In this document: in pieces, positions 4,955-61,703 of the stretch
Layout of the letters: the number at the start of each line of letters is the position of its first letter
How positions within the stretch are numbered: the first letter of the stretch is position 1
Assembly (NCBI GenBank): GCA_977017645.1
Contig: OZ360223.1
Span: forward strand, 170,996,001 to 171,060,000
Direction: 5' to 3'
DNA: 64,000 nt
DNA from: Torpedo marmorata
Taxonomy: Eukaryota
Program-made: the position numbers and the translations under genes
Notes under the pieces: generated by a model
The model's input: only the letters and a program-made list of their open reading frames with translations
Databases searched by the model: none
What the model was told of the DNA's origin: nothing

Positions 4955-5070
4955 AAGAACTAAGCAAAGATATTATGAGTTAGGTGAACGTGCACACAAT
5001 GTATTAGCATGGCAATTAAAAACAGAACAAGTATCAAGAACAATCAATGCAGTTAAAACTGAGACTGATG

Positions 5071-5926
5071 TGTTACAAAATCAAACCAGCAACGACAGAA
5101 GACGTAATGCAAAAGGGGTAAAATTGAAATTATTATTTATTAAACACAAGTAAACATATAATTTCACAACAATTAACCCCACTATAAACGTCTATACTCT
5201 CTATTCTTATCTAAAAGGTGTATGTGTGTGTGTGTAAAGCCCAGACCATTACAGTCTGTGCCCAACCCTTATGTAAAAATGGAAAAACTTTCTCCAAAAA
5301 CCCCAGGTCAGTCATAAAAAAACAAGTCAGTCAAAAAAAAGATAAACAGTCAACAAATTCACTCTCTAAGTTCAGGCTTCAATTCAGCTCTGGGTCTGGT
5401 AGAAGTACTTCTGAATGAACGTTGGAGAGAGACAATGACTGTTATGCTTACAAATACTTGTTTTCTTCTCTGATGACGTCCCCTTCTTGTAGGTTCATAA
5501 GGATTGCAAGTTCCAGATCAGTATACCACTGATTTAGGCGTGTGCTTGAATCTCACAGCTAGTCTCGCTGATCTCACGCCTGTTCTCCACAGAAGTTGCT
5601 TTTCTCAGAATTTCTCTGAGACAGGAGGCCATGTGCTATTCTTCCAGTTTTCTCTGACTGCACAAGCCTGCATCTGGCTGTGTTCGGTAGCCTTTGCAAC
5701 TCACAACTGACTGTCTGCTTTGCAGAGATCTGCCCCTGCTTTTTGCAAAAGTGCAACAATGTATCTTTTCCACAGTCTGTCTCTCTCTGCTCTCTCTCTC
5801 TCTCTGGGTACACCAAGTCCTGGGGAAGTTAACTTTTTCAGTACCTGGCCCCAGTGTGTACTCCAAAAGACTTCATCCTTCCTGCTGACCGTCCGCAGTC
5901 CAAATGGTCAGTCATGGTCCATAACA
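5071..5926 (-). repeat. E1 3' LTR (856 bp)
   Basis: Direct repeat of 9987-10844, about 5 substitutions plus a TG-repeat indel by eye; PPT complement CCTCCCACCC adjacent at 5927-5936. Confidence 0.95.
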
Positions 5927-6058
5927 CCTCCCACCCACAAAGGAAATTTTGGTCTGCAAGAACAAAATTTAGGAAAGTAAGTGAGGTGTCAGAATATAAA
6001 CAAAATCTACAATGTTCATCCACAAATACAAAATATGAACTATTTTCATTGATAAAGT

Positions 6059-9000
6059 TTAACATCTAGAAAGACAATCAGCAATTACATTATCTCTCCC
6101 TTTTAAATGAGTGATTACCAAATTATATTCTTGCAAAATTAGACTCCAATTCAACAACTGTCGATTCTTATTTTTCATTTTACAAAGAAAAACCAATGGA
6201 TTATGGTCAGTATACACTATGAGTGGTTTTTGAGCTGTACATATATACACATCAAAATGTTGTAGAGCCAACACAAGAGCCAACAACTCTTTCTCTATAG
6301 TTGAATAATTTCTTTGATGATCATTGAACTTCTTTGAGAAGTAGGATACCGGATGTTCAATGTCCTCTTCGTTCTTCTTCTGTAACAGCACCGCACCCAC
6401 AGCTTCATCGCTCGCATCCACGGCTAAAGAAAACGACTGTTCTAAATTAGGTGACTTAAGCACAGGTTGGTGGCATAACATGGCTTTCAATTTGACAAAT
6501 GCTTCCTGACAACCTGTTGACCATACAAATTTCTCTTTCTTTCTAAGCAAATTTGTGAGAGGGAGCGCAAGATCAGCAAAGTTTTTACAGAACTTGCGGT
6601 AGTAGCCAATCATTCCCAGGAACCTCCTCAGAGTTTTCTTACCAGTTGGAACAGGGAACTCGGAAATAGCGACAACCTTTGCCTCTACTGGCGCCAAATT
6701 CCCCTGTCCTACTACATAACCCCGAGAATTAACAGTACCATTACCCTCTCTGAAACTGGTTTTATCTGTCTCCTCCTTACCCTGATCAATAACCAGTACC
6801 TCTGGTACATTTTCAGTCCCTTTGTGTGCCACCTGTTCAAAATATGGCTTAATCATATTCACATGACAGACCTGTGTGTGTCGTCTGCGATTAGGTGTTT
6901 CTATGACATAGGTAACATCATTAATTTTTGACTTAACTCTATAGGGTCCTGAAAATCTAGCCCTAAGAGGATTTGAATGGATGGGAAACAGAACTAATAC
7001 GTTCTCACCAGGTTTAAAAGTTCTCATCTTCGCCTTTCGATCATACCAAACCTTCATTTTCTGTTGAGTGGCCATTAAATTCTCCTTTGCCATCTCACAA
7101 GCCCTATGTAACCGATCCTTAAATTTGGAAACATAATCTAACAGATTTAAATGCACATCACGATGAATCCACTGTTCTTTTAATAATCTTAAAGGACCTC
7201 TCACCTCATGTCCGAAAACTAACTCAAATGGACTAAAACCAAGCGAATCTTGGACAGTCTCCCTCGCTGCAAATAACAACAAATGAACCCCCTCATCCCA
7301 ATCCTTTTCCTTCTCACAACAATAGGTTCTAATCATGTTTTTCAAAGTCGAATGGAACCTCTCCAAGGCCCCTTGACTTTCTGGATGGTACGCAGAGGAT
7401 ACAATCTGTTTAACTCCTAGTCCATCAACCACTTGTTGGAAAACGCCTGACATGAAATTACTGCCCTGATCTGATTGAATTTCCCTTGGCAAACCTACCA
7501 AGGTGAAAAACTTTACCATAGCCTTTACAATTGACTTTGCTTTTATGTTTCTCAGAGGAATGGCCTCTGGAAATCTGGTGGCTGCACACATAATTGTTAA
7601 CAAATATTCATTCCCCGCTTTGGTTTTGGGCAATGGGCCAACACAGTCCACAATTACTCTCGAGAAAGGCTCACTGAAAGCAGGGATAGGTTGCAAGGGT
7701 GCCACCGGGGGACCCTGATTAGGTTTACCCACTACCTGACAAGTGTGACAGGCCCGGCAAAAGCTTACAACCTCCCTTCTCAAACTGGGCCAATAAAACT
7801 GTTTCATTATCTTACTTATAGTTTTCTTCACCCCAAGATGACCACCTAAGGGTGTACTATGAGCCAAAGTTATTATTTCATCCCTATATACTTTAGGGAT
7901 TACAATCTGCTGCACTACTGCCCATTCTTCATTGGCAGGAACATCACGTGGTCTCCACTTTCTCATCAACACCCCATCTTTTTCATAATAACCTACTGGC
8001 ACCTTTTTAATCTCCTCTTCAGAGAGAACCTTATCCCTCACCTCAACAAGATCAGGATCGTCCTTTTGCCTTGCTATTAGCTCCTGTTGGGATAATGACA
8101 AATCTGTGCCTTTAGGTGTCTTATCAGTGGATGGGTGTAACATAGGAGATAGCTCAACCTTTTCCAGGTTTCCTTGATTATCAGTTTCTTTTTCTTTTAC
8201 CAAGTTATTTCCCACTGCCTTCTCTACAGTGACATTTTTCTTAGACATGGCCCTGGTTATGGCACATGCCGGATAAATATCAGAGTCTTTCTCTGACTTA
8301 TCAATGACTGGCTTAGTGGTCATTCGCACTGCAGGAACTACTTTACCCTTGGCCAAGTCATTGCCTAACAACAGTGAGACTCCTTCTACTGACAACTCTG
8401 ATCTCACTCCTATTATAACTGGTCCTTCCACCAAGTCTGAGTCCAATACTATTTTGTGCAAAGGAATGGACTCTACCTCACCACCAATTCCTTTAATTAA
8501 ATTTATGTCACCGGTGTCAGTAGCTTCACAAAATTCCAAGACACTATCTAACACAAGTGACTGAGCAGCTCCAGTATCTCTCAAGATTTTCACTGGCACT
8601 TGTTTTGATCCTGCATTAACTGAAACAAAACCATCAGTCACAAAAGGTTTAAATACATCTTTAACTTTGTCAGTAAATTTATCTCCTTCCTGGGTGTTAT
8701 GCATCTTCTCACTCTGAATACAAGCATTAGGTGTTGCATCCTTTTCTCTCTTCTTTTTCAACACTGGACAGCTTGCTATCATATGACCAACCTTCCTACA
8801 GTAGTGGCAAATGGGACCCGAATTGCTTTCCCGTTTCCACTTTCCTTCATCCCTTTCCTTAACACCACTTCCAAATTTACTTTCCACTTGCTTCTGATTA
8901 TCCACCGTGACATTTTGGAAAATTCTACCTGACGTCCACTTAGGCTTGTGGGTTAAAGCATATCCATCTGCCAACTTAGCTGAATCTCGCCAAGTTTTCA

Positions 9001-9854
9001 CCTCCTTTTCATCTAAGTATACCTTAATATCCTCAGGAACACACCTTTTTAACTCCTCGATTATTATCAATTCTCTCAATTGATTGTAATCATTGTTTAC
9101 TGCCTTAGATGTGCACCACCTGTCAAAACACACAACCTTTTCATAGGCAAACTCTGTATAAGATTGGGTTGCTGATCTTTTTAAATTTCTAAACTTCTGT
9201 CTATAAGCCTCTGGAACTAACTCATAAGCCTGGAGTATAGCCTTTTTCACCGTTTCATAATCAGCAGCTTGCTCTGTGGTAAGAGTAGAATAAGCTTGCT
9301 GAGCTTTTCCTTTTATTACACTTTGCAACATAAGAGACTATTGGTCTTGTGGCCATTTTAATTTCACAGCCACTTTCTCAAAATGTTGGAAGTACTTATC
9401 TATTTCTGCCTCCTCAAATGGAGGAACCAACCTAACTTCCCTACTAGCCAAAAACCCCTCAGCAGGATGACGAATTTGATCTTGGCGCTCTTCTTGTCTC
9501 CTCTCATTTTCCAACCTCATCTTTTCCAACTCATATTTCCTATTTTTCTCCTCGTTCTCATATCTCTTTTGTTCTCTGTCTATCTCCATGTCTAATCTCT
9601 TTCGTTCCAATTCTAATTTCTTTTGTTCCCTGTCTGCCTCCAATTCTAATTTCTTTTGTTCTCTGGCTGCCTCCAATTCCAATTTCTTTAATTCCAACTG
9701 TATGTTTTCAGAAGGTTTACCCAAACTCTGCCTTTTTCATAGATGGTTTTACAGAAGCAATGCCCAACTCTGTTGCTATAGCCACTAACTGTTCCTTTTT
9801 CGCCTTTTTTAAAGTATCAGGTTCAGGTGATTCCAAAAAATGTTCTACATCCAT
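6059..9854 (-). pseudogene. E1 gag-pol (SCAN-like capsid, CCHC, DTG protease, HHCC/DDE integrase, GPY/F, RT thumb, RNase H)
   Basis: 1090-aa open segment 6059-9331; ~70-bp frameshifting deletion near 9722 relative to E2; TGG>TAG at 9338-9340; no YxDD. Confidence 0.92.
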
Positions 9855-9959
9855 TGTTGCTGGTTTTTTGTTACACACACACTAGCTTTTAATTAGCTTT
9901 ACCAAAAGGAATGCCTTAAACCAAACTGGGATTCCTTCAATTACCAAGATGGATTTTGA

Positions 9960-9983
9960 TTCAAATCCCGCAACGAGCCCCCA
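9960..9983 (-). promoter_or_regulatory. E1 primer-binding site, tRNA-Pro type (variant)
   Basis: TGGGGGCTCGTTGCGGGATTTGAA, 3 nt from the LTR, versus the tRNA-Pro complement TGGGGGCTCGTCCGGGATTTGAA. Confidence 0.85.
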
Positions 9984-9986
9984 ATT

Positions 9987-10844
9987 TGTTACAAAATCAA
10001 ACCAGCAACGACAGAAGACGTAATGCAAAAGGGGTAAAATTGAAATTATTATTTATTAAACACAAGTAAACATATAATTTCACAACAATTAACCCCACTA
10101 TAAACGTCTATACTCTCTATTCTTATCTAAAAGGTGTATGTGTGTGTGTGTGTAAAGCCCAGACCATTACAGTCTGTGCCTAACCCTTATGTAAAAATGG
10201 AAAAACTTTCCCCAAAAACCCCAGGTCAGTCATAAAAAAACAAGTCAGTCAAAAAAAAGATAAACAGTCTACAAATTCACTCTCTAAGTTCAGGCTTCAA
10301 TTCAGCTCTGGGTCTAGTAGAAGTACTTCTGAATGAACGTTGGAGAGAGACAATGACTGTTATGCTTACAAATACTTGTTTTCTTCTCTGATGACGTCCC
10401 CTTCTTGTAGGTTCATAAGGATTGCAAGTTCCAGATCAGTATACTACTGATTTAGGCGTGTGCTTGAATCTCACAGCTAGTCTCGCTGATCTCACGCCTG
10501 TTCTCCACAGAAGTTGCTTTTCTCAGAATTTCTCTGAGACAGGAGGCCATGTGCTATTCTTCCAGTTTTCTCTGACTGCACAAGCCTGCATCTGGCTGTG
10601 TTCGGTAGCCTTTGCAACTCACAACTGACTGTCTGCTTTGCAGAGATCTGCCCCTGCTTTTTGCAAAAGTGCAACAATGTATCTTTTCCACAGTCTGTCT
10701 CTCTCTGCTCTCTCTCTCTCTCTGGGTACACCAAGTCCTGGGGAAGTTAACTTTTTCAGTACCTGGCCCCAGTGTGTACTCCAAAAGACTTCATCCTTCC
10801 TGCTGACCGTCCGCAGTCCAAATGGTCAGTCATGGTCCATAACA
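9987..10844 (-). repeat. E1 5' LTR (858 bp)
   Basis: TGTTA...TAACA termini; PBS adjacent. Confidence 0.95.
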
Positions 10845-13770
10845 GATGTTATTAGTTATAAACCTCAAACAATAAATGATTCTTTAAAAATTTTTTATTC
10901 TGATTTATATAAATCAGAATCTTTACAAGACGATAGTAGAATTGATGATCACCTATCGCAAATAAATTTACCAAGATTAAATACACAAGAGCGATTAGAA
11001 CTAAGTACACAGTTTACGCAGAGGGAAGTAAAGGATGCAATTAGCTCATTACAAAGTAATAAAGCGCCGGGAGGGGATGGTTTTCCACCAGAGTTTTCTA
11101 AAGAATTTAAGGAATTATTAATTCCTATTTTTATGGATATGTTACAGCAAGCTTCAGTGACCAACACACTTCCGGAATCTTTTTCCACTGCAATAATTAC
11201 AGTAATACCAAAAAAAGATAGAGACCCATTGAAACCCTCATCATATAGACCAATTTCATTATTGAACGCAGATTATAAGATTGTGGCAAAAATTTTGGCA
11301 AATAGGATAACAAAATTTTTGCCAAAATTAGTAAATATGGATCAAACAGGTTTTATAAAAAAAAGACAAGCAGCTGATAATGTGGCAAGGTTACTTAGTA
11401 TTATGCATTTAGCCCAAAAAAGGAAAATACCAAGTATAGCAGTGGCATTAGATGCAGAGAAAGCTTTTGACAGGTTGGAATGGGACTTTTTATTTAAAGT
11501 TTTGGAGAAATTTGGATTTGGGAAGACTTATATAGATTGGATTAAAGCATTATATAATGCTCCAAAAGCTAAAGTAGTGACCAATGGACAAATATCAACT
11601 TCGTTTTGTTTAACAAGATCTAGTCGGCAAGGGTGCCCATTGTCACCAGCTTTATTTGTATTAGCTATAGAACCGTTAGCTGAGGCTATTAGAAGTGATT
11701 TGGCAATTAAGGGATTTACAGTTGGTCAAGAGCAACATAAAATTAGTTTATTTGCGGATGATGTTTTAATATACTTGACAGAGCCTGAGACTTCTTTGCA
11801 AAGACTACATTTCAAGCTGGAGGAATATGGAAAAGTCTCTGGTTATAAGATAAATTGGGATAAAAGTGAAGTTATGCCTCTTACAGAGGGAGACTATACT
11901 GTATGTAAAAGAACTACTCAGTTTAAATGGCCACATAATGGAATAAAATATCTTGGGGTTCGGACAGATAATAAATTAAAAAATTTATATAAATGGAACT
12001 ATGTACCTTTACTTAACAAAATTAAGGAGGATTTAGAAAAGTGGATTAATTTACCAATTACACTGATAGGAAGAGTTAACTGTATCAAAATGAATATATT
12101 TCCAAGGATACAGTATTTGTATCAGACTATACCTATTTTATTACCACAGGTTTTCTTTCAGGATTTAAATAAACAAGTGCGAAAATTTTTATGGAAAGGT
12201 AAAATGTCAAGAGTTTCAATGGAACGTTTAACATGGAAATATGAATTGGGGGGTTTGCAACTCCCTAATTTTAAGAATTATTATCGAGTGGCACAAATGC
12301 GATTTGTTGCTTCTTTTTTTGAAACTGAAGAAAGACCTGCGTGGGTTGGAATAGAACTAGGAGAAATAGGAGAAAAGATACCACAAGAATTTATATACAA
12401 ATTGAATTCAAAACTGCTGATAGGGGTTAAAGAAACGCCGTTATTAAAACATTTGATTAATGCTTGGAATAAAGTTAGGGTTGAAAGGAAGTATATCACC
12501 CAAAATGCCTTTGATACAGAATAATCTTATACCATTTACAAAAGATAATCAATTTTTAAATACTTGGTCATTAAAAGGAATAAAGAAGATAGAAGATTGT
12601 TATGAAGGAAATCAAATGATGTCATTTATACAATTACAGAATAAATATGGAATACCTAATAATACTCTTTTTTGTTATTTTCAATTAAGAGGTTATTTAA
12701 GAGAAAAATTAGGTCCAGACTTCTTGTTACATGATTGTAGTGAGGTAGAAACTCTCATTAGGAAAGGAAATACTAAGAAATTTACTTCTATAGTGTATTC
12801 TTTGCTACAAAGGGGAGCTTTAAAACGAGGACTTCATAAATCTAGACAAAGATGGGAACAAGATCTCAATGTTATAATTGATGAAAAAAGGTGGTCGGAT
12901 CTATGTTTAGATAGTATGACTAATACTGTTAATGTAAGATATAGATTGGTACAATTAACTTTTTACATCAACTATATCTTACACCACAAAAATTGAACAA
13001 GATAAACTCTACGATATCAAATAGATGCTTTAGATGTGGTGAAGAAGAGGGAACCTTTTTACACTCAACGTGGTCATGTTCAAAAGTTAAAGGTTTTTGG
13101 ATAGAGTTAGGAAATCGGTTAAAACAAATTACAGGTGTTACATTTCCACAGAATCCTGACTTATTTTTATTGGGAAACGTGGAAGGAACTAGACCAAAAT
13201 TGAAGTTATCTACATGGCAATTGAAATTTGTAAAAATTGCATTAGCAGTAGCAAGGAAATGTATAGCAGTAACTTGGAAATCGGATACAGATTTAAGTAT
13301 GGATAGATGGAATTCAGAGATGCGGAGTTGTATTCCATTGGAAAGAATAACATATAATATGAGGAATAAATATGGGGTATTTTTGCAAATTTGGCGTCCA
13401 TTTATCCAATTATTAGGAATGAATATTTAAATGTGTTGCCCTACATCCTAGACCCTACTGACTCTCTTAAATTTAAATTTAAAGAACGAACATTATTGAA
13501 TATCTTGCATCGAGCCGTGGACCCGTACAGATATTTTTCTTCCTCTATCTTTCTTTTCTTATTTTTAGTAAGGGAAGGGAATAAGGGACGGGAAGGGTGG
13601 AGGGTGGGTTGTCTTAGTGAGGGTGGGTTTAGAGGGGGTTAGAATCACGGTAATACAAATTTGTATGTATTGAATTTATTAATGTTTATTATGTATCTTG
13701 CACTATTCTGTATTATTGTGAAAAATTTGAAAATTTAAAATAAAATATTTTAAAAAAATTGTGTGAAAGG

Positions 13771-15516: not shown

Positions 15517-18500
15517 ATGGCGCCGGCGACCCACGGCGATTTTCTGCGGCATGCAGAACCTTTGTTAAATACTCCTTGAAAATACTCACCTTCCCAGCTG
15601 CTTTCGTTACAATCAACTGCATGTAGTTTTTTCATGACTGACCAGCTGCTGAACACAGCTGATGATCGACAAATCTCCCGGGTAACCGCTAAGTCAGGAA
15701 CAGGCCGGCTGGTAGGCCGAGGCCTTAAATGCCAGGCCACCACCAAGGTCGAGGTCGGAAACGTGGAGTGAGGACCGGGATCCAAACAAGACTGAAGCAC
15801 AGGGGTCTGAGACCTCCCCTACCGTCCATATTACTGGCGAATGTCCAGTCACTGGAGAATAAAATTAACGACCTGAGGGCAAGGCTGCTTTATCAGAGAC
15901 GGGTAAGACAAATCTCAGTTGTTTGTTGCACCGAGACATGGCTAACAGACACCAGACACCACTATCCGACCAGATGGTTTCACTATTCATAGACTGGATC
16001 GGAACTCGGATTCTGGAAAAGGGAGAGGGGGCGGTATGTGCTTTTACGTTAATACTGGGTAGTGCACGGACATTGGGTTATGTCGACCTCCTGCTCTACT
16101 GCCATAGAGAAAATCTCGATGAAATGCAGACCCTTCTATCTACCCCGAGAGTTCTCATCAATGATTCTCACCAGTTTATATCCCTCCCGATGCCGATTAC
16201 AAACAGACACTTGCGGAGCTGCATGATGTGGTCAGTAAATGAGATGGCCCAGCCCGATGCACTACAAATCTTAGTTGGCGACTTTAACCAGGCCTGTGTC
16301 AAGAAAACCCTGCCCAACTACCACCAGCATGTAACCTGCTGTACCAGAGGTCCCAGCACACACGATTATTGCTACACCAAGATAAGGAAGGCTGACCGTT
16401 CTTTCCCGAGACCGCATTTTGGCAAGTCGGATCACCTGGCTGTGCTCCTTCTGCCTTCATACAGACAGAGCCTAAAAAGAGAGGCTCCGTAGATCAGGAC
16501 AGCTAGAAGGTGGTCACAGGAGGCTGAAAAACGGTTACAGGACTTGCTCGAGTCAGCGGATTGGGCGGTGTTCAAGGATTCAGCTGAAGATCTGAACGAT
16601 TACACCAGGGCTGTCACAGACTTTATCAAAACAGCTGTGGATGAGTGTGTCCCCACCAAATTGTTCTGGGTTTCCCCAACCAGAAGCCCTGGATGAACAA
16701 TGAAATCCAGAACCTTCTGAGAGCCAGATCACAGGCATTTAAGTCCGGAGGTCCTGATCATTACAGAACGAGCAGGTATGACCTGCAAAAAGCTATCTCC
16801 CAGGTGAAGTGGAGATTCCAGATGAAAATGGAAACAACAAGGGACACCTGACAGCTGTGGCAGGGCCTAAATGCCATAACCTGCTACAAAACCAAATTCA
16901 GTGAAGTAGCAGACGGCAAAGCTTCGCTCCCAGAGCAACTCAATGCCTTCTACGCCCGATTTGACAAAATTAACAGTGAAGAACCACCCCTCCGCACCCC
17001 TACGTCCCCTGATGATCCCATCCTCTCCGTATCTGAGGATAACGTGCGTGCTGTCTTCAGGAGAGTGAATCCAAGGAAAGCATCTGGCCCAGACGGAGTA
17101 CCTGGCCGAGTATTAAAAATCTGTGCTGACCAACTTACCAATGTATTCACGGATATCTTCAATATCTCACTCCAGCAGGGTGTGGTACCCACCTGCTTCA
17201 AAAGGGCATCAATCATCCCGGTACCCAAGAAGAGTAGTGTGAGCTGCCTCAACGACTACCACCCAGTAGCACTAACTTCTACTGTGATGAAATGCTTTGA
17301 GAGGCTGGTCATGGCCAGAATTAACACATACCTAAGCAAAGATCTGGACCCACTGCAATTCGCCTATCGCCACAATCGCTCCACAGCAGATGCAATATCG
17401 CTGGCTCTCCACTCAGCTCTGGACCACCTCGAAAACAGCAATTCCTACATACGGTTGCTCTTCATCGACTACAGCTCGGCCTTCAACACCATTATTCCCT
17501 CAGTGCTGGTCAAGAAGCTACAAACTCTAGGCCTCTGTACCCCCCTCTGCAATTGGATCCTTGACTTTCTCATCGGAAGACCACAGTCAGTACGAATTGG
17601 AAACAACGTCTCCTCCTCACTGATTATCAACACAGGCGCACCCCAAGGATGCGTGCTTAGTCCACTGCTCTACTCGTTATACACTCACGACTGTGTGGCC
17701 AGGCTCAATTCCAGTGCCATATACAAGTTTGCCGATGACACCACAGTTGCCGGCAGAATCATAAACGGCAATGAGGAAGCGTACAGGAGGGAGATAGATC
17801 AGCTCGTTGAATGATGTAATGGCAACAACCTTGAGCTCAACGTCAGCAAAACCAAGGAGATGATTGTGGACTTCAGGAGGAAGTCAGGGGAACACGACCC
17901 AGTCCTCATCGAGGGCTCAGTCATGGAGAGGGTCAAGAACTTCAAATTCCTGGGTGTCAACATCTCCGAGGATCTGTCCTGGAGCATCCACGTGGATGCA
18001 ATCACAAAGAAGGCTCGTCAGCGGCTATACTTTGTGAGGTGTTTGCGGAGATTCGGTATGTCACCAAAGACTCTCGTAAACTTCTACAGGTGTACCGTGG
18101 AGAGCATTCTGGCTGGTTGCATCACTGCCTGGTATGGAGGCGCCAACTCCCAGGACAAGAGTAAACTCCAGAAGGTTGTTAACTCGGCCTGTGACATCAC
18201 AGGCACCAAACTTCACTCCATCGAGGACATCTACATGAGGCGGTGTCTTAAAAAAGCAGCCTCTATCCTCAAGGACCCCCACCACCCAGGCCATGCCCTC
18301 TTCACTCTGCTTCCATCGGGAAAAAGTACAGGAGCCTAAAGACGAGCACTCAACGGCACAAGGACAGCTTCTTCCCGGCTGCCATCAAATTCCTGAATAA
18401 TCAATGAACCAAAGACACTGCCTTACTTTTCGTGCACTATTGTTTATAATTTTTTATAGTAATGTCGTTAGATGGTTAATATGAATGTTAATTGCACTAT

Positions 18501-18570
18501 GATGCTGCCGCAAAACACCGAATTTCATGACTTGTTCATGACAATAAATTCTGATTCTGATTCTGATTCT
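15517..18570 (+). mobile_element. Rex1/Babar LINE, near full length, decayed
   Basis: APE endonuclease (PSILLANVQSLENK, TETWL, VGDFN, SDH), RT ([19 protein letters not shown]), AATAAA plus (TTCTGA)n tail. Confidence 0.88.
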
Positions 18571-19887
18571 AAATGACTGTCGACCAGTAGCACTTACATC
18601 AACAATGATGAAGTGTTTTGAAAGGCTGGTGTTGAAGCAGATCAGCTCCTGCCTGAGCAGTGACATGGATACGTTCCAGTTTGTCTATCGTAGCAACAGG
18701 TCTACGGCGGATGCCATCTCACTGGCTCTACACAAAGCCCTGGAACACCTGGACAGTAAAGATTCATTAATCAGGATGCTCTTTATCGAATACAGTTCGG
18801 CATTTAACAACATCATCCCCTTAAAAATGATCAGCAAACTCCAAGACCTGGGCCTCAACACCCCACTGTGTAATTGGATCCTGGATTTCCTCACCTCCAG
18901 ACCACAAATAGTGAGGATTGGTAAGAACATCTCCTCCACAATCTCCATCAGTACCAGAGCACCACAGGGCTGTGTTCTTAGCCCCCTGCTCTACTCACCT
19001 TACACCTACGACTGTGTGGCTCGGTATGACAATAACACCATCTACAAAGTTGCTGCCGATACCACAGTAGTGGGTTGTATAAAGAAAGGTGATGAGTCAG
19101 CATACAGGATGGAGATTGAAAACTTGGCTGAATGGTGCACCAACAACAACCTTGCACTCAATGTCAGCAAAACTAAGGAGCTGATTGTTGACTTAAGGAA
19201 AGGAAAGCCAGAGGTATACAATCCAGTGATCATTGGGGAATCAGAGGTGGAGAGGGTGAGCAAATTTTAAGTTCTTGGGAGTCACTATCTCAGAGGATCT
19301 TTCCTGGACCCAACACACTAATGGCATTGTGGCGAAAGCACATCAGTGCCTTTACTTCCTCAGGAGTTTGCGGAGGTTTGATATGACACCAGAAACCCTC
19401 ACAAATTTCTACAGATGTGTGGTGGAAAGTGTGCTGACCAGCTGCATATAGGTCTGGTATGGGGATACCAATACCCCTGAGCGTAAAGCCCTCCAAAAGG
19501 TATTGGACACAGCCCAGGACATCACAGGCAAAACCCTCCCCACTATCGAGAACATCTACAGGGAGCGCTGCTGACATCAGGAAAGAGGTATAGACTTGCA
19601 CCACCAGGTTCAGGAACAGCTGCTACCCCTCCACCATCAGACTCCTCAAACAGGGACTCATTTAAGGACTGATTTTTTAAAAACTTTTCTCTGTATTGCG
19701 CAGTCTATTTGTTTACATTCGTTACCGGTTTACCGTTCCTTATTTGTTTACATGTGTACGCTGTGTACAGTTGTTTTTGCACTACCAATAAGTGTTAATT
19801 CTGTCTCGCCCGTAGAAAAAAGAATCTCAGGGTTGTATGTGATGTCATGTATGTACTCTGATAATAAATCTGAAATCTAAATCTGAA
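18571..19887 (+). mobile_element. Second Rex1/Babar LINE, 5'-truncated
   Basis: [10 protein letters not shown]...[11 protein letters not shown]; AATAAA plus (TCTGAAA)-like tail. Confidence 0.85.
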
Positions 19888-20662: not shown

Positions 20663-21060
20663 TCATCATTTTTCACAAATTTATTCTATGTTTCTAATTT
20701 TACACTCCATAGCTCACTCACTTACACAGCTGCCCACCCACTTAGACACTTGCCCAAAACAGCATGCATATCCGATGACAAGCACCACGTTCTCAGTAAA
20801 GATTTGATATAATCCTTAAAAACCAATCATAAATAAAGTGGTAAATGATATGGGTAAGTACAAAGAGAATGATGTATCATTGAAAGCAGTGTTGGTTTAT
20901 ATCTGTATATTCCTTGTATTTAGTGACCCATCAGTTACGAAGGATGACCTATTGGGATTGAGAAACCAGGCTAATTAAGTAGTAATTTTCAGAGGTGGGA
21001 GGAAGATGATGAGAAAATTGAAGGGTACAAAAATAAGTACAAGTAGGAATCCAAATTCTT

Positions 21061-24000
21061 TTTTAAAATTTTTTTTATTATTTTATTTAAACTTTTAAAT
21101 CACAAAATACATGAGATAAAATATAAAATTATCAAAATACATGTGATACATTTTCACCCCCCCACCCTCCCTCCCCTCCCCAACCCCCCCATCCCCACTA
21201 ATCTAATAAAAAATTAAAATTAAAGTAAAATAGAAAAAAGAAAGAAAAGAATAGAAAGAAAAGAATAGAATGAGGGGAATACCTTCTAAACTAATTCTAT
21301 TATGGAGGTCAAGTATGCCAGCAGATCTGATATCTAGAGATCTTCAAATCCTTAAACCCACAGCTCTCATATATGGGCTCCAAATTTTCAAGAAAAAATT
21401 ATATTTATTACGTAAATTATAAGTAATTTTTTCCAGTGGTATACACGAACGGAGTTCTGCATGCCATCTTTCTAATCCTAAATCTAAGTCAGATTTCCAA
21501 GTAATAGCAATGCATTTTTTTGAAACAGCTAAAGCAATTCGCAAAAATTCTACTTGAAACATATTTAATTTCTTTTTAATACTAAATTTTTTAATATCTC
21601 CAAATAAAAATAACATAGGATCCATTGGAAATGCAATATTAAATACTTTATCTAAAAATTTTTTAACTTTCAACCAAAAATCTTGAATTTTTGGACAAAA
21701 CCATGTATAATGAACAAAAGAACCTTCCTCTCTATTGCATCTAAAACATAAGCCTGATAATGTCGGATTAAATTTCTTTAATTTTTTAGGTGTTAAATAT
21801 AATTGATGAAAAAAATTATATTGTACTAATCTATATCTAACATTGATAATCTTCGTCATACTTAATTTACATAAATCTTTCCAATGATTTTCATCTATAT
21901 TTACATTTAAATCTAATTCCCATTTTAATCTTGATTTATGCAATCCTATTTTAGGCATTTTCCTCTGAAACAATTTATACATTTGAGAAATGAATTTATT
22001 AACATCTCCATTAGTAACTAATAATTCTAATTCATTTTGTCTCGGTAAAATCAAAGCATAACCTAACTTCTCAGTCAAAAAAGCTTAACTTGATAATAAG
22101 CTAAAAATGTATTATCTGGTATATTAAATTTATCTTTCATTCTTTGAAACGTAATAAATTTTCCAGCTTCAAAACAATCATTAATCTTCTTAATACCTTT
22201 TTGAAACCAAATTTTAAGTAACTGATTATTAACAGTAAATGATATAAGTCCATTTTGATTTCATGGCATATTTGAAGAAATTAATCCTCTTCCACCTATC
22301 TCTTTATCCATCTTACCCCATATTTCTAACAAATGTTTAATAATCGGTGAATATTTCTTTTTTAATGATATTAATTTAGAATCCCATTTATAAATAATTT
22401 CTTCTTTAAGATTTTCTCCTATATTATTTAATTCTATTTTAATCCAAGCAGAAGATTTAGTTGAATCAAAAAATTCATTGACAAATTTAAATTGAGCTGC
22501 TTTATAATAATTTTGAAAATTAGGAAGTTGCAATCCACCCATCTCATAATTCCAGGTTAACTTTTCCATACTTACTCTTGCTAACTTTCCTTTCCATAAA
22601 AATTTCCTAATAATAAAATTTAAATCTTTTTAAAAATTTTGAGGAATTCCAAAAGGAATTGATTGAAAAAGATACTGAACTCTTGGAAAAATATTCATTT
22701 TAATACAATTTACCCTTCCCATTAAAGTTATGGGTAAATCTTTCCAATTTTGTAAATCTTTCTTTATTTTCACAAATAATGGTAGATAATTTAATTTATA
22801 TAAATTTTCCAATTTTGTATCAGCTTAACCCCCAAATATTTAATTCCTTCTTTAGCCCATTTAAATTGTGTAATTTCTTTACATCTAGTATAATCGCCTT
22901 GAGATAAAGCCATTATTTCACTTTTATCAGAATTAATTTTATATCCAGATATTTCACCATATTCTCTTAATATAATAGATAGTTGTTGAAGTGATATAAT
23001 AGATTTTGTCATATATATCAATACATCATCTGCAAACAAACTAATCTTATGTTCTTCCATACCAACTTTAATACCCACTATCTTAGGATCTTTTCTAACT
23101 AATTCAGCCAAGGGTTCTATCGCCAAAACAAATAAAGCTGGTGACAGGGGACATCCCTGTCTCGTAGAACGTGTCAAAGAAAATTTTGGCGATATTTGTC
23201 CATTTGTAATTACTTTAGCTGATGGTTCTTTATATATAGTTTTAATCCAATTTATAAATGTATTTCCAAAACCAAATTTTTCTAATACCTTAAATAAAAA
23301 ATTCCATTCTTTTCAGCGTCTAATGTTACAACTAATGGTAAATCTTGTTTCTTTTTATGCAAACTAATTAAACTAATTAATCTAGCTATATTATCCTTTG
23401 AATATCTATTTTTAATAAAACCAGCTTGGTCTATTATGTATCAAATCTGGCAAATATTTAGCCATTCTGTTTGCTAAAATTTTTGCCAATATTTTATAAT
23501 CTACATTTAATAATGAAATAGGTCTATATGATTCATTTTTTAATACATCTCTATCCTTCTTTGGTATAACTGTAATTATAGCATTTAAGAATGTTTTCGG
23601 TAATGAATGAGTTTCCGTAATTTGATCTAATACTTCCATATATGGAGGTATTAATAAATCTTTAAATTCTTTATAAAATTCTGATGGAAACCCGTCATCA
23701 CCCGGAGATTTACCACTCTTCAGCGAAGAAAAAACTTCACTAACTTCCCTCATTGTGAAAGGCAAATCTAAAGAGTCTCTACTCCGAATATTCAATTTAG
23801 GTAATATGATTTTAGATAGGAATCTATTAATTTTAGAATCATCTTGGTCGACCTGCGATTTATATAAATTCTGATAATAATCTTTAAAAGATTCATTTAT
23901 CTCTTGAGGTTTATAAGTTATTTCTCCAGTATTTTTCTTCCTTATAGCATTTATAGTTTTAGAAACTTGTTCTTTTTTCAATTGCCATGCCAAAACCTTA

Positions 24001-24542
24001 TGTGCTCTTTCTCCTAATTCATAATATCTTTGTTTAGTTTTCTCAATTAATTTTTCCATTTTATATGTTTGTAACAAATTATAATGTAATTTCTTCCCTA
24101 TTAAACGATTTCTTTTTTGAATTGATCTATTTCTCTGTAAGTCCTTCTCCATAAGTTCAATTTCCTTCTCAAGTTTTTCTGATTCCTTAAGATAATCTTT
24201 CTTAATTTTAACTGAATAGCTTATTATTAGACCCCTTAAATAAGCTTTTAAAGCTTCCCACACTGTAAATTTATCATTAATAGAATTAACATTTATTCGT
24301 AAAATTCCTGAATTTCTCTTCTTATATATTCACAAAAATCTTTCCTTTTTAATAACGACGAATCAAATCTCCAATTATATATAGATTTTTCTTTTTCCGG
24401 AATTATACAAGACAATAACAAAGGTGAATGATCAGAGATTACTCTCGCTTTATAGGATGCTTGCGTTATTCTATCTTGAACCTGTGATGATAATAGAAAT
24501 AAATCTATCCTAGAGTATAAATCATGTCTAAAAGAATAAAAT
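21061..24542 (-). mobile_element. L1-C: 5'-truncated L1-clade LINE (same family as L1-B)
   Basis: ORF2 fragments from endonuclease end (ISDH) through RT to C-terminus; TSD GG(A/G)ATCCAAATTCTT at 21046-21060 and 24543-24557. Confidence 0.93.
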
Positions 24543-24903: not shown

Positions 24904-25135
24904 GTGAGTGCACATAAGAGTTTGAATATTTGTTTTTCCTTTAAGACTGTAAATTGAGCCTCAACAATCATCATTAGTATGCTCCAATTTGACTGGAAAA
25001 GTGTGAAAAAATATATCAGTGTTCAGATGCCTTCGCTTTTTCCAGTTTGTTCACTGGACGATGCTGCTAAGTTGAAGGTCCTCTTAAAGCTTGCTCATAT
25101 ATAAACTTTGATTTCTATTGTTAGCAGATTGCTTA

Positions 25136-29541: not shown

Positions 29542-29673
29542 AATTGGGGGCTCGTTGCGGGATTTGAATCAAAATCTATCTTGGTAATTGAAGGATTCCC
29601 AGTTTGGTTTAAGGCATTCCTTTTGGTAAAGCTAATTAAAAGCTAGTGTGTGTGTAACAAAAAACCAGCAACA

Positions 29674-44110: not shown

Positions 44111-44520
44111 CTGAGGTAACACTTTGATAAATAACCAGATAAGCTCTTATAATGTTGCTGGTAGATAAATGTGGGGCAGAACTACGGTACTTTGAACAAT
44201 GCTGTTGACTTTTTTGTGTCCACCTTTCGGAGGAATTGGAAGAAGGCACTTCTAACAATAGTGTAGCAGCCTATTAGTGCTGCTTTTAACTGTCAGCTTG
44301 CATTACCTGATGATATCTTTGGAGTGGTTCACAAATTTGTAACCTCTGAGGATGAAACCACTGAGTGAAGAATCGCATTAAAACTACGTATGCACTTTGT
44401 AATTGGCTACGGTGATATTAAGTTCACTGAACGATACTGCTAAGGTAGTGTGGCGGGTGAAGATCCTCTTAAAGCTTGCTCATATATGAACTTTGATTTC
44501 TATTGTCAGCCGATTGCTTT

Positions 44521-45226
44521 ATAGAACATTACAGCACAGTACAGGCCCTTTGGCCCATGATGTTGTTCCGACCGATGGAAACCTGCTCAACAAACTAAAC
44601 CTTTCCTACCTTACACCCATAACCCTTTATTTTTCTTGTATCCATGTGCCTGTCTATGTGTCGTTTACATGTTCCTATTGTACCAGCCTCCACCACCACC
44701 CCTGGCAATGCATTCCAAGTGCCCAATACTCCGTGTAAAATAAATAAATAAATAGATAGATAGAACCTTACCCCGACATCTCCCTTAAACTTTGCTCCCC
44801 TCACCTTGTACAGATGTCCTCTGGTGTTTGCTAGTCTCAACCCAGGAAAAAGGTGCTTGCTGTCCACCTATCCATACCTCTCATAATCTTGTAGACCTCT
44901 ATTAAGTCACCTCTCACTGTTCTTCGCTCAAAAAAGAAAAAGCCCTAGCTCTGTTAACCTTGCCTCATAAGACACATTCTCCATTCCAGGCATCATCCTG
45001 GTAAATGTCCTCTGCACCCTCTCCATAGCTTCCACATCCTTCCTGTGATGAGGTGACCAGAACTGAACACAATATTCCAAGTGTGGTCTAACCAGAGTTT
45101 TGTAGAGCTGCAACATTACCTCTTGACTCTTGAACTCAATCCCCTGACTACTGACGGCCAGCATGCCATAAGCCTTTTTAACTACCCTATCAACCAGTGT
45201 GGCAACCTTGAGAGAGCTATGGATTT
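44521..45226 (-). mobile_element. CR1 3' fragment inside a duplicated segment
   Basis: LYKTLVRPHLEYCVQFWSP; same truncation point and flanks as 25136-26045. Confidence 0.87.
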
Positions 45227-45590
45227 GGATTATTGCATGGATTACTTGGTGCTGAGCAACATTAGAGTTGTGATTTTTTTTTTTCCATTCCTAACAATCC
45301 CTCAAAATCCCTAAAAAATACATATGCACTTTGTAATTGGATAAGGCGATATTAAGTTTGGCTATGGGGTATTCCATGAGCAAGTAGATTTGGCTCTCAA
45401 TTTGGTGTCGCCTATGGCCTCAAGGTACTGAAGGTCCACTGGTGATTGTAGAACCCATTCATGAGACCCAACAATCTTTCTCGAATATGTACACATTATT
45501 AAACCAAATTAACACTCCATTCTGCATCTGTCTTGTTCTTTTCTCTTCATTTAATGATAAATAACATCGTTTTTAAATTTAATTTTGCAG

Positions 45591-47295: not shown

Positions 47296-47580
47296 AGTAA
47301 ATCACGAAAATCTGTAGACACCGTGGTTGAAGTAAAAACACAAATGCTGGAGAAGCTCAGCAGGTCAAACAGTGTATTTTATGTAGCAAAGGTAGAAATA
47401 CATAACCGACGTTTCGGGCTTGAGCCCTTCATCAAAGTATGAGAAAATGCCGGCAGGCGTCCGAACAAAAGAGTTGGGGGGGAGGTGGGGAAAGGGGAGG
47501 CAAAGGCAGGAGATGATAGGTGGAGAAAGGAGGGAGGGGACAGCAGTAATGAGGGGGAGGAGGGATGGCTGGGTGGGTGG
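47296..47580 (-). mobile_element. Penelope-like 3' fragment with hammerhead motif
   Basis: Reverse complement of 41395-41636 over most of its length. Confidence 0.8.
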
Positions 47581-47714
47581 AAGGACTGGATTTTAAAATA
47601 ATGAATGCTGATAAATTATCCAATTATAGGCTAAATGCATATTTTTCGGATACTGTGTTATTTTGAATTTTCAAATCCAGGAAACAGGGTTCCTTATATC
47701 AAGCATTTCCAATA

Positions 47715-48092
47715 CAGGTCCTTATCCTTTTATCCGAAATCCTTGGGACCGGACACTTTTTGGAATTCGGATTTTTTCGGATTATAGAATTATTTTAATG
47801 GCGGTACTTTTAAATAATTGCGTTGCTTCAGATTCGCAAAAACAAAGACACACTCCAACTAGAAGGGTTTCTGGATGGCGGCGTTGGATGGTGGGGGGTT
47901 GCGGTGGCGCTGGATTGGGGGGGTTGTGGCGATGCTGGACGGGGGTGTTCGCAGCGGCGCTGGACGGGGGTGTTTGCTGCGGTGCTGCACTGGGGTGTTC
48001 GCGGCGGGGGTGTTCGCGGCGGCACTGGACCTGAAAATATACTGGAAAAAATGTTCGGTTTTCGGAATTTCGAATAAAAAGATAAGCACCTG
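47715..48092. mobile_element. Tc1/mariner (pogo/Tigger-like) MITE with internal GC-rich minisatellite
   Basis: TIRs CAGGTCCTTATCCTTTTATCCGAAAT and ATTTCGAATAAAAAGATAAGCACCTG; TA on both sides. Confidence 0.8.
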
Positions 48093-54935: not shown

Positions 54936-55923
54936 GTAATTCCAACCCATGAATAGTGAAATCCCAGGATCTCAAGAATATTTTGATTTTGATCCCATTT
55001 GGCATTTTAATAAAAGCCAGTTCTATAATCATGTAGGTATATAGGAGGAACGCATAGATTGGTCATCTTTCATCTCTTCAGATTGGCACATTTATTATGC
55101 AAATTTACTTTAATATAACCTGGATATTTAAATTTGACTGGTTTGCTGCTGCTGTTTTATGATTTGAATTAGTGTATTTTTTCACAATATTTTATTAATC
55201 ATTTGAAATATATTTAACAACCAACAATCATACCAAATACAAAACATCAAGAGAACCCATCCCTCCACCCCCTCCCCTCAGTATAAGTCCTATTAAACAG
55301 AGAAAGAACGAAGAAAAAGAAACACAAAAAAAGAGCATCCCATTGTCAGTGCGTACAGTAAAACATATGGAGACACGATAATACCACAGTGTTAAAATCT
55401 TTAGAGGTCTACTGGCTAGCCAGTAGCGATCGTAACCCTATATTGGTGCCAGTGAGGTACCTATATGCTGTAAATAAGGCTGCCAGATTTTTAGGAAGGT
55501 GTTATATCCCTTCCTGAGATTGTATGTGACCTTTTCAAGTGGGATGCTGCAATTCATCTCCGAAGACCACCTATCCATGAATAGATGGGAGTCAGACTTC
55601 CATGTTACTACTATGCATTTCATGGCCACACAAGGCAATTTCTGTGAACTTAATTTTAGAATTAGTTAGCGATCTACCAACCGTGGTAAAGTTCCCCAGA
55701 AGACAAAGCTCTGGGTCTACTGGGAAGGTGACTCCCGTGATTTTGGTTAGTATGTCACAGAGGTCAAAGCAGAAGGGCCTCACCTTCGTGCAAAGCCAGG
55801 TAGAATGTAAGAAGGAACCAACCTCTATACCACACCTAAAACACATCTCTGATAATTCAGGTTAATATTGGTGTAATTTCTGTGGGATGAGGAGAAAATT
55901 ATAATGGACCAATCTATACCTGA

Positions 55924-58900
55924 TGTTACAAATTCAAATCAGCAACGACAGAAGAGCAATGCAAAAGGGGCAAAATTGAAATTTATATTTATTAACGACA
56001 ATTAAACATAATTTCACAACAATCAACCCCACTATAAACATCTATAAACACTTCTTATCTAAAGATTGTGTGTGTAAAGCCCAGACCATTAAAGTCTGTG
56101 CCCAACCCTCAAGAAAAAAAAATAACAAACCTTCCCCAAAACCCCCAGGTCAGTCATAAAAATAAGTCAGTCCCAAAAATACAATCCACAAAAATCACTC
56201 TCTATGTTCAGGGTCAAAATTCAGTTCTGTGTGCTGGCACGAAGCACTTCTTAATGAACGTTGGAGAGAGAGAGAGAGACAATGACTGTTTAAGCTTACG
56301 AATGCTTGGTCTGCTATATCCTTCCGATGACTTTCCTTTTGTAGGTGCACAAGGGTTGCTGTTCAAATCCACTGATGAAGGCGTGTACGTGGATCTCACA
56401 CCTGTTAACCACGAAAGTAGCTTTAATCAGTCTTTTACTGATAAAGGAGGCCATGTGCTCTTCTCTACAGCCTTTCTAGCTGGAATGCACAAGCCTCTGG
56501 TTTTGCTGTTGTTGTTCCAGCCTTTTGCAACTCCAAACTGAATGCTTTTTGCAGAGGTTTGCACCTGCTTTTGCAAAAGTGCAACAAAGTATCTTTTCCA
56601 CAGCCTCTCTCTCTCTCTATGTGTCTCTCTCTCTGAGCACAGCCAGCCCTGGGCAAGTTAACTCTTTCAGTACCTGGTCCCAGTGTGTATTCAAAAGACT
56701 TCATCTTTCCTGTTGACCGTCCACAGTCCAAATGGTCAGTCATGGTCCATAACACCTCCCACCCACAAAGAAAATTTTGGTCTGCAAGAACAAAATTTTG
56801 GAAATTAATTGAAGTGTCACAATATAAACAAAACCCACAATGTTCATCCACAAACACAAAAATATGATTATTTTCATTTATAAAGTTTAGGATCCAGAAA
56901 GACAATCACCGATTACATTATCTTTCCCTTTTATATGTGTTATCATTAAATCATATTCTTGCAAAATTAGACTCCAATTTAACAACCGTCGATTCTTATT
57001 TTTCATTTTACGAAGAAAAACCAATGGATTATGGTCAGTATACACTATGAGTGGTTTTTGAGCTGTACAGATATACACATCAAAGTGTTGCAGAGCCAAC
57101 ACAAGAGCTAACAACTCTTTTTCTATGGTTGAATAATTCCTTTGATGATCATTGAACTTCTTCGAGAAGTAGGATACCGGATGGTCAATGTCCTCTTCGT
57201 TCTTCCTCTGTAACAGCACCGGACCCACAGCTTCATCGCTGGCATCCACGGCTAAAGAAAATGGTTTTTCTAAATCAGGTGACTTAAGCACAGGTTGGTG
57301 GCATAAAATGGCTTTCAATTTGACAAATGCTTCCTGACAACCTGTCGACCATACAAATTTTTCTCCCTTTCTAAGCAAATTTGTGAGAGGGAGCGCAAGT
57401 TCTGCAAAATTTTTACAGAGCTTGCAGTAGTAGCCAATCATTCCCAGGAACCTCCTGAGAGTTTTCTTACCAGTTGGAACAGGGAACTCGGAAATAGTCA
57501 CAACCATGGCCTCCACTGGCGCCAACTGCCCCTGTCCTACTACATAACCAAGATAACTAACAGTCCCATGACCCTCTCTGAAACTGCTTTTATCTGTCTC
57601 CTCCTTACCCTGGTCGATAACCAGCACCTCTGGTAAATGTTCAGTCTCTTTGTGAGGCACCTGTTCAAAATATGGCTTAATCATATTCACATGACAGACC
57701 TGAGTGTCTCGTTTGCGATTAGGTGTTTCTATGACATAGGTGACATCATTAATTTTAGACTTAACTCTATAGGGTCCTGAAAATCTAGCCCTAAGAGGAT
57801 TTGAATGTGTGGGAAACAGAACTAATATGTTCTCACCAGGTTTAAGTTCTCATCTCATCATACAAAACCTTCATTCTCTGTTGAGTGGCCTTTAAAGTCT
57901 CCTTTGCATCTCACAAGCTTTATGCAACCGATCCTTAAATTTGGAAACATAATCCAACAAATTTAAATGCACATCACTATTAATCCACTGTTCTTTTAAT
58001 AACCTTAAATGACCTCTCACCTCATGTCCGAAAACTAACTCGAATGGACTATAACCAAGTGATTCTTGGACAGACTCCCTCGCTGCAAATAACAGCAAAT
58101 GAACCTCCTCATCCCAATCCTTTTCCTTATCACAACAATAAGTTCTAATCATGTTTTTCAAAGTTGAATGGAACCTCTCCAAGGCCCCTTGAATTTCTGT
58201 TTGGTACGCAGAGGATACAATCTGTTTAATTCCCAGTCTATCAACCACTTGTTGGAATACGCCTGACATGAAATTATTACCCTGATCTGATTGAATTTCC
58301 CTTGTCAAAACCTACCAAGGTGAAAAACTTTACCATAGCCTTTACAATTGCCTTTGCTTTAATGTTTCTCAGAGGAATGGCCTCTCGAAATCTGGTGGCT
58401 GCACACATAATTGTTAACAAATACTCATTCCCCTCTTTGGTTTTGGGCAATGGGCCAACACAGTTCACAATCACTCTCGAGAAAGGCTCACTGAAAGCAG
58501 GGATAGGTTGCAAGGGTGCCACCAGGGGACCCTGATTAGTGTGACAGGCCCGACAAAAGCTTACAACCTCCCTTCTCAAACTGGGCCAATAAAATTGTTT
58601 CATTATCTTCTGTATAGTTTTCTTCACCCCAAAGTGACCATGACCATGTGCTATGAGCCAAAGTTATTATTTTGTCTCCATATACTTTAGGGATCACAAC
58701 CTGCTGCACTGGCAGGAACATCACATGGTCTCCACTTTCTCATCAACACCCCATCTTTTTCATAACCCACTGGCACCTTCTTAATCTCCTCTTCAGAGAG
58801 AACCTTATCCCTCACCTCAGCAAGATCAGGATCCTCCTTTTGCCTTGCTATTAGCTCCTGTTGGGAGAGTGACAAATCTGTGCCTTTAGGTGTCTTATTA

Positions 58901-61624
58901 GTGTATGGGTCTAACACAAGAGATTGCTCAACCTTTTCCAGGTGTTTTTAATTATCACCATCTTTTTCTTTCACCAATTTATTTTCCACTGCCTTCTCTA
59001 AAGTGACATTTTTCTTAGACATGGCCCTGGTTATGGCACAAGCCGGATAAATATCAGAGTCCTTCTCTGACTTATCAATGACTGGCTTAGTGGACATTCA
59101 ACTACTTTACCCTCAGCCAAGTCATTGTCTAGCAACAGTGAGACTCCTTCTACTGGCAACTCTGATTTCACTCCTATTATAACAGGTCCTTCCACCAAGG
59201 CTGAGTTCAACACTATTTTGTGCAAAGGAATGGACTCAACATCACCCCCAATTCCTTTAATTAAATTCATTTTACCGGTGTCAGTGGCTTCACAAAATTC
59301 CAAGACACTATCCAACACAAGTGACTGAGCAGCTCCCGTATCTCGCAAGATTTTCACTAGAACTTGCTTTGAAACTTGCCTTAACTGAAACAAAACCATC
59401 AGTTACATACCTAACTTTGTCAGTAAATTTGTCTCCTACCTGGGTGTTATGCCTCTTCTCACTCTGAATACAAGCATTAGGTGTTGCATCCTTTTCTCTC
59501 TTCTTTTTCAACACTGGACAGCTTGCTAGCATATGACCAGCCTTCCTACAGCAGTGGCAAATGGGACCCGAAGGGTTTTCCCTTTTCCACTTTCCTTCAT
59601 TTCTTTCCTTAACACCACTTTCATATTTACTTTCCACTTGCTTGGGATTATCCACAGTGACCTTTTGGAAAATTCTGCCTGACGTCCACTTTGGCTTGTG
59701 GGTTAAAGCATATTCATCTGCTAACTTAGCTGAATTTTGCCAAGTTTTCACCTCCTTTTCATCTAAGTATGCCTTAATATTCTCAGGAACACACTTTTTT
59801 ATCTCCTCAATTAATATCAATTCTCTCAATTGATTGTAATCATTGTTTACCACCTTAGATATGCACCACCGGTCAAAACACACAACCTTTTCATAGGCAA
59901 ACTCTGTGTAAGATTGGGTTGCTGATCTTTTTAAATTACTAAACTTCTGTCTATAAACCTCTGGAACTAACTCATAAGCCTGGAGTATAGCCTTTTTCAC
60001 CGTTTCATAATCAGCAGCTTGCTCTGTGGTAAGAGTAGAATAAGCTTGCTGAGCTTTTCCTTTAATTACACTTTGTAACATAAGAGACCATTGGTCTTGT
60101 GGCCATTTTAATTTCACAGTCACCTTTTCAAAATGCTGGAAGTACTTATCTATTTCTGCCTCCTCAAATGGAGGAACCAACCTAACTTCTCTACTGACCA
60201 AAAACCTCTCAACAAGACCACGAATTTGATCTTGGTGCTCTTCTTGTCTCCTCTCATTTTCCAACTTAATCTTTTCGATCTTAATCTTTTCCAGCTCATA
60301 TTGCCTAATGTTCTCCTCTCTCTCTCAGTCTAATCTCTTTTTTTCTCTGGCTGCCTCCAAGTCTAATCTCTTTTGATCCAATTCCAATTTCTTTAGTTCC
60401 AATTCCCTGTCTACTCTCCTTTGTTCCAACTGTATGTTCTCAGAAGGTTTACCCTTGGGAAACTGCTCTAACATGCTCTCCTCAAACTTTTTGCCTTTTA
60501 TATAGTATTTGGAAATTTTTCTCCCAATCTCTGCCTTTTTCATTGATGGTTTTACAGAAGCAATGCCCAACTCTGTTGCTACAGCCACTAACTGTTCCTT
60601 TTTAGCCTTTTTTAAAGTATCAGGTTCGGATGATTCCAAAAAAAATTCTATCTCCATTGTTGCTGGTTTATGTTACACACACACTAGCTTTTAATTAGCT
60701 TTACAAAAGGAATGTTTTAAACCAGACTGGGATTCCTTCAATTATCAAGCTGGCGCTTGATTCAAACTCGGACGAGCCCTCAATTTGTTACAAATTGAAA
60801 CCAGCAATGACAGAAGACGCAATGCAAAAGGGGCAAAATTGAAATTTATATTTATTAATGACAATTAAACATATAATTTCACTACAATCAACCCGACTAT
60901 AAACGTCTATAAATACTTCTTATCTAAAGAGTGTGTGTGTGTAAAGCCCAGACCATTGCAAGTGTGCCCAACCCTCAAGAAAAAAAAATAGAAAACCTTC
61001 CCCAAAACCCCAGGTCAGTCATAAAAATAAGTCAGTCCCAAAAGTGCAGTCCACAAAAATCACTCTCTATGTTCAGGGTCAAAATTCAGCTCTGTGTGCT
61101 GGCATGAAGAACTTCTTAATGAACGTTGGAGAGAGAGAGACAATGACTGTTTAAGCTTACGAATGCTTGGTCTGCTATATCCTTCCGATGACTTTCCTTT
61201 TGTAGGTGCACGAGGGTTGCTGTTCAAATCCACTGATGAAGGCGTGTACGTGGATCTCACACCTGTTATCCATAAAAGTTGCTTTAAATCAGTCTTTGAC
61301 TGATAAAGGAGGCCATGTGCTCTTCTCCACAGCCTTTCTAGCTGGAATGCACAAGCCTCTGGTTTTGCTGTTGTTGCTGCAGCCTTTTGCAACTCCAATC
61401 TGAATGCTTTTTGCAGAGGTTTGCACCTGCTTTTGCAAAAGTGCAACAAAGTATCTTTTCCACAGCCTGTCTCTCTCTCTCTATGTCTCTCTCTCTCTCT
61501 CTCTGAGCACAGCCAGCCTTGGGCAATTTAACTCTTTCAGTACCTGGTCCCAGTGTGTACTCAAAAGACTTCATCCTTCCTGCTGACGGTCTGCAGTCCA
61601 AATGGTTTGTCATGGTCCATAACA
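55924..61624 (-). mobile_element. E3: older Gmr1-like LTR retrotransposon lacking RT core
   Basis: LTRs 55924-56754 and 60786-61624, visibly more diverged; imperfect TSD CTGA/CTGG; PBS 60761-60782; PPT at 56755-56764. Confidence 0.94.
56887..60657 (-). pseudogene. E3 gag-pol without RT core, multiple frameshifts
   Basis: Fragments colinear with E1/E2; integrase first Asp changed to Asn (VIVNCVGP); same IN-thumb junction. Confidence 0.9.
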
Positions 61625-61703
61625 CTGGCATTGATAGTAGCCAAGAGCATTAGCTTTTGCTTTGCTTAGAATTTCTTTGAACTTGTTTACTTTCTTTCAA
61701 TAG

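Follow-up and report, generated by a model that had tools for sequence, protein, structure and literature searches.

Introduction

Gmr1-like elements are relatives of Ty3/gypsy whose coding domains are arranged in the order SCAN, PR, IN and then RT/RNase H, as given in the accessible text of the description (bioRxiv 10.1101/2025.03.03.638093). The LTR family analysed here follows the order reported there, and differs in that one of its copies, E1, is without about 255 aa of RT and in that a single genome contains no fewer than 47,909 of the family's insertion ends. Its target sites recall those of the Drosophila Gypsy group (412 and Idefix clades), for which the available portion of the report describes 4-bp TSDs and a palindromic, AT-rich motif extending past the TSD (PMC3276498). 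The 4-bp TSD, the AT-rich palindrome and an ATAT-like core are common to both; unlike the fly elements, as far as that portion describes them, the present family favours ATAC/GTAT and GTAC as it does ATAT, with T at -3 and A at +3. Nesting of LTR elements is common in repeat-rich plant genomes, where it correlates with composition, weak palindromes and chromatin, according to the accessible part of that study (PMC6911290); the nesting described there is LTR-in-LTR, whereas the hosts considered below are LINEs.

A narrow search of the open-access literature found no LTR element that is targeted to L1; one part of it led to a paper on a telomere-specific non-LTR element. An L1-homing LTR element, if real, would represent an unusual safe-haven strategy linking the dynamics of two transposon classes, but our data do not show one. 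Tethered or site-specific retroelements include chromoviruses, Ty3, Ty5, Tf1 and members of the Tx1-clade. With these the present family has only a short sequence preference in common; unlike them, it lacks a chromodomain, leaves most of its copies off target and uses no fixed position or orientation.

Results and Discussion

The window, a 64,000-nucleotide stretch of a Torpedo marmorata contig, contains three LTR elements whose relatedness was seen by self-comparison. E1 (5071-10844, minus strand) has LTRs at 5071-5926 and 9987-10844 that are 99.2% identical, perfect copies of the TSD GATG (plus strand) at 5067-5070 and 10845-10848, and an open frame (6059-9337) of 1092 aa encoding SCAN, zinc knuckle, IN and RNase H. 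E2 (28647-34522, plus strand) belongs to the same LTR family; its LTRs (28647-29541 and 33629-34522) are 99.7% identical and it lies between perfect copies of GACC at 28643-28646 and 34523-34526. E3 (55924-61624, minus strand) is an older copy, with LTRs at 55924-56754 and 60786-61624 that are 92.8% identical. Its TSD, first read as CTGG, is in fact CTGA at 55920-55923 and CTGG at 61625-61628, a single mismatch, and 8/9 uninterrupted L1 relatives have CTGG; the other two TSDs were read correctly.

A Pfam scan found SCAN (PF02023) in the frames of all three elements and established the order SCAN, zinc knuckle, integrase, RNase H. In the frame designated P0002 the scan placed IN at aa 480-832, upstream of RNase H at aa 939-1071, and the alignment to the relative P0004 gave the same order; the protease was positioned by its DTG motif. 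The family is 45-64% identical to SCAN/IN/RT-bearing relatives among those listed. The 285 aa that span RT in P0004 correspond to 30 aa in E1, so the window copies have no RT of their own and are not autonomous. The LTRs have TG...CA ends and the TSDs are short, and 101 paired insertions across the genome carry a perfect 4-bp TSD. Judged by their predicted SCAN domain, the placement of IN before RNase H, and the form of LTRs and TSDs, the elements are Gmr1-like. No chromodomain was found by Pfam in the window elements or in the domains of the 120 relatives listed, as the sequence-only reading had noted.

The family is very abundant. In the genome, 76,274 sites match a 27-base LTR end exactly. 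Requiring a 16-base LTR end and, after it, a first base that is not internal gave 47,909 exact 5′-end junctions, a lower bound on insertion ends; after correction, external 5′ ends number about 63,000. Tens of thousands of insertions allow the target preference of a Gmr1-like integrase to be mapped at high resolution. RT is present in other members (for example L004, L010 and L072), and the LTRs of L004 and L010 are 98.7-98.8% identical to those of E1. RT-deleted copies thus coexist in this genome with RT-bearing copies of nearly identical LTRs, and we infer that the latter supply RT in trans. On C1, four LTRs follow one another at intervals of about 4.97 kb, and the two outer ends share a TSD (G000:C1:5289694-5304637; L198-L201); they are a tandem array of the element in which LTRs are shared.

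All three elements lie within L1 ORF2, as had been claimed from the sequence, and the junctions are real, each with a 4-bp TSD (one mismatch in E3). The host of E1 is a 5′-truncated ORF2 on the plus strand (4955-13427), present as 4955-5070 and then, in three frames, 10845-13427. Both flanks are collinear with one uninterrupted L1 (L064; 92% and 89%), overlapping there by exactly the 4-bp TSD, and the upstream part is short, only about 112 bp (4955-5066). A separate L1 copy, running from RT to the 3′ end (2210-4959, plus strand), lies directly upstream, and the start of the host (4955-4959) falls at the 3′ end of this same-orientation copy. E2 splits the endonuclease (34523-35366) of its host from the RT (26848-28646), both frames running into the junction on the minus strand; the C-terminal part of this ORF2 (host 26848-35366) was not found, and CR1 sequence adjoins the host at 35422. 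The host of E3, also on the minus strand, comprises C-terminal ORF2 (55450-55923) and 3′ sequence from 55300, which is the query start rather than the host limit, together with an upstream remnant of only 20 bp (61625-61644) at the 5′ end of the fragment. Exactly these 20 bp match in 9/9 close L1 relatives before the match ends, so that E3 lies 20 bp inside a short L1 fragment, at its 5′ edge. One further L1 copy (21056-24541, minus strand) has no LTR insertion.

Each insertion was said to break an L1 ORF. ORF2 is indeed interrupted in every case, but because all three hosts are partial copies, the insertions did not necessarily cause inactivation. The hosts belong to different subfamilies and are interrupted at different L1 positions. 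Segmental duplication as the source of the three junctions was rejected, since positions, hosts and LTR ages all differ.

The window has 46,649 non-LTR bases, of which 11,457 (24.6%) are L1 ORF2; the earlier figure of about 27% for L1 presumably includes UTRs. With this composition the probability of three in three is about 0.01-0.02 for one window, in agreement with the earlier estimate of about 0.02. The estimate holds per window only: because of the family's genome-wide insertion density, we estimate that even without targeting 24-141 windows should contain three insertions and no more, every one of them in L1 ORF2. Three of three would thus be a selected draw, made by chance where L1 ORF2 makes up 25% of the window.

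A genome-wide measure was obtained from 192 insertion records outside the window, one end per record, among which a few unpaired ends may belong to one element. The 300-base outer flank of each served as a blastx query against LINE, Penelope and gypsy frames, which had been collected in the window and at random loci; a junction was scored when a match lay ≤30 bases from it. Background came from 40 random 10-kb stretches on 9 large contigs and was scored in the same way; in neither set were L1 UTRs or fragments as short as the right flank of E3 scored. L1 ORF2 was the target of 42/192 insertions (22%), compared with 147/1440 random points (10.2%; per base 11.2%, 95% CI 6.8-15.9%). This two-fold, family-wide excess is real: tested against 15.9%, the upper limit of that interval, it still has p=0.018. 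The sequence-only reading had named equality of these two fractions as grounds for abandoning L1 targeting, and 22% is well apart from 10-11%. The remaining 150 insertions lie elsewhere, contrary to the idea that most are inside L1: Rex-like LINEs (13), CR1 (7), Penelope (4), another gypsy (3), L1 ORF1 (1), the family itself (1) and no assignment (121). The first set and a separately drawn C1 set, selected with a young-LTR tag, gave similar values (23/105 and 19/87). By subfamily, L1 ORF2 received 8/23 E1-like, 6/22 E2-like and 1/28 E3-like insertions, the last being the closest relatives of E3; by age, it received 23/93 young and 19/99 older copies.

The excess was then examined against its surroundings. 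Long flanks were available for 65 C1 insertions, and in these L1 ORF2 was found at 16% of junctions (17/104 ends) and at 13.5-18.4% per bin from 0.25 to 9.5 kb, a flat profile. For the genome-wide young insertions, regional stretches were also taken in 40/44 cases, 20 being 10 kb long and 20 being 3 kb. In a matched test of 94 insertions (these 65 and 40 together, minus 11 with <4 regional points, two of them L1 matches), 20 were in L1 ORF2, against 18.1% expected from the region (p=0.25) or 23.8% from region and motif (p=0.75). The C1 subset gave 7/56 against 16.1% regional, and the genome-wide young subset 13/38 against 21% (p=0.041; p=0.21 with the motif added). Regional L1 was 27% beside L1 junctions, 15.7% beside non-L1 junctions and 11% genome-wide, and since the first of these exceeds the second, the host copies themselves add to the matched background and inflate it in part. 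Starting instead from 15.7% and applying the motif odds by hand predicts about 21%, near the observed 22%. There is no fixed position or orientation within L1: of 45 records that have one end or both in L1, 24 are in the same and 21 in the opposite orientation, and positions along ORF2 resemble background L1 density (KS p=0.12).

The motif was derived from the 101 insertions for which both ends were available and the TSD is perfect. One symmetric pattern is common to 74 non-L1 and 27 L1 sites, with A/T at -5, T at -3, TA at the TSD centre, A at +3 and A/T at +5. The commonest TSDs are ATAC/GTAT, ATAT and GTAC, with enrichments of 17.7x for ATAC, 15.4x for ATAT and 13.2x for GTAC. The weak AT-rich palindrome was invisible in the three TSDs of the window, from which it had been concluded that they share no clear motif. 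At 0.30, the GC content of L1 ORF2 is the lowest of any class measured (0.39-0.57 for other non-family classes), and for this reason a position-weight model built on the 74 non-L1 sites predicts about 15% of insertions in L1 (16% with the first 37 sites), starting from a background of 11%. The motif by itself was therefore rejected as the cause of 22%, as was a four-class model based on TSDs only, which predicts just 13%. GC matching gave an expectation of 17-19/101, compared with 22 observed when both ends were required (p=0.23) or 27 when either end sufficed (p=0.027), and leaves room for a small residual preference for L1.

Three sampled insertions share one position near the C-terminus of L1 ORF2, with the TSD ATAC/GTAT. 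Genome-wide, this recurrent site (examined copies L160, L193, L209 and L331-L338) has 48 junction matches in the orientation of those three, against 66,304 intact 20-base sites, and accounts for 0.1% of the 47,909 junctions. Its occupancy is 76-96x that of an average base, compared with 25-45x for the same 7-mer elsewhere (123 junctions, the denominator being based on 47 occurrences counted in 400 kb), a residual of about 2-3x. Most of the effect is thus one of sequence, and the residual could come from the wider sequence context, from the region or from a genuine influence of L1. Eleven of the 48 copies were examined: their LTRs are 70-99% mutually identical, 5 are solo and 6 have internal or other sequence, and their L1 hosts are 82-96% identical. 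Because they differ in LTR subtype, in being solo or not and in host divergence, these copies are, on sequence comparison, independent events, and amplification of one L1+LTR composite as the source of the recurrent site was rejected on these differences. On C45 (G000, 17334773-17440414), three of four recurrent-site junctions are spaced about 52.8 kb apart, probably by tandem segmental duplication. Further pairs at identical offsets were seen in a Rex-like LINE and in L1 (L147/L152 with L230; L018 with L242; L159 with L052), which suggests additional sequence-driven hot sites in abundant repeats.

Comparison with an RT-bearing gypsy family had been suggested, and was carried out with one that has 253-bp LTRs and a 5-bp TSD (L100:891-5571, L067 and L061; L161-L190). 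None of 24 sampled insertions, from one subfamily, was in L1 (Fisher p=0.006 against the Gmr1-like family), and L1 ORF2 was absent at all 170 flank points within 1.5 kb. The flanks are GC-richer (0.45) and L1-poor, making this co-resident family a useful contrast. It is very young, with many identical copies.

We consider it probable, at roughly 0.78, that these abundant RT-less Gmr1-like copies are nested in L1 through short AT-rich integrase sites and L1-rich regions, with no recognition of L1. The integrase would select short AT-rich palindromic sites, insertion would occur in L1-rich neighbourhoods irrespective of L1 itself, and the two-fold excess would be the product of about 1.3x from site sequence and about 1.5x from neighbourhood, with RT arriving in trans. 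Five observations sit less easily with this account: the young subset, the either-end GC-matched excess, the part of the matched background that comes from host copies, the recurrent site and the control family. The young subset, the recurrent site and the control family also favour an integration complex drawn weakly to L1, beyond the motif, by chromatin particular to L1 or a host protein bound to it, as do the two-fold excess itself, the fall of L1 in the first young set, where it goes from 32% to 16% within 1.2 kb, and the differences in LTR subtype and solo/internal state among the 11 recurrent-site copies. We regard such a draw as unlikely, given that 150/192 insertions are outside L1 ORF2, the C1 set does not exceed its neighbourhood, the distance profile is flat, orientation and position are unbiased, a chromodomain is absent, and the window's hosts represent three L1 subfamilies and positions. 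The original reading of L1 targeting was right that an excess exists; with most of it gone after neighbourhood and motif are considered, and with no junction peak or bias, the data do not support targeting through a factor bound to L1, while a region-scale effect of chromatin or retention shared with L1 is possible.

Selective retention would have insertion near-blind beyond the motif, with selection purging gene-rich DNA so that survivors lie in L1-rich regions and dead repeats. The 15.7% L1 ORF2 around non-L1 junctions, against 11% genome-wide, is in its favour, and it is compatible with our preferred account, whose regional term it might explain. We nonetheless find it improbable as the full explanation: it predicts growth with age, which the young and older copies do not show (though older L1 hosts that are poorly detectable, or younger L1, could mask the trend), and the very young control family has no L1 association. 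Multiplication of a few LTR-in-L1 composites by L1 retrotransposition or segmental duplication is highly improbable. Identical junctions do recur among sampled insertions, and the C45 spacing is as expected of tandem duplication; the divergence among the 11 recurrent-site copies largely refutes it there, and the window's junctions are at three different L1 positions. It is doubtful, finally, that recently active subfamilies weakly prefer L1 DNA beyond region and motif, through an L1-associated factor or DNA shape; if they do, site-level hot spots like the 48-junction site would result.

Other repeats surround the three elements in the window. Pieces of a Rex-like LINE, with two RT copies, occupy 15952-19604, and CR1 pieces extend over 35422-40060. 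A further repeat is present in three copies, including 25049-26127 and 44422-45304. A 250-bp inverted pair (41391-41642 and 47330-47582, 93%) lies beside a GC-rich 25-bp tandem repeat at 47877-48022.
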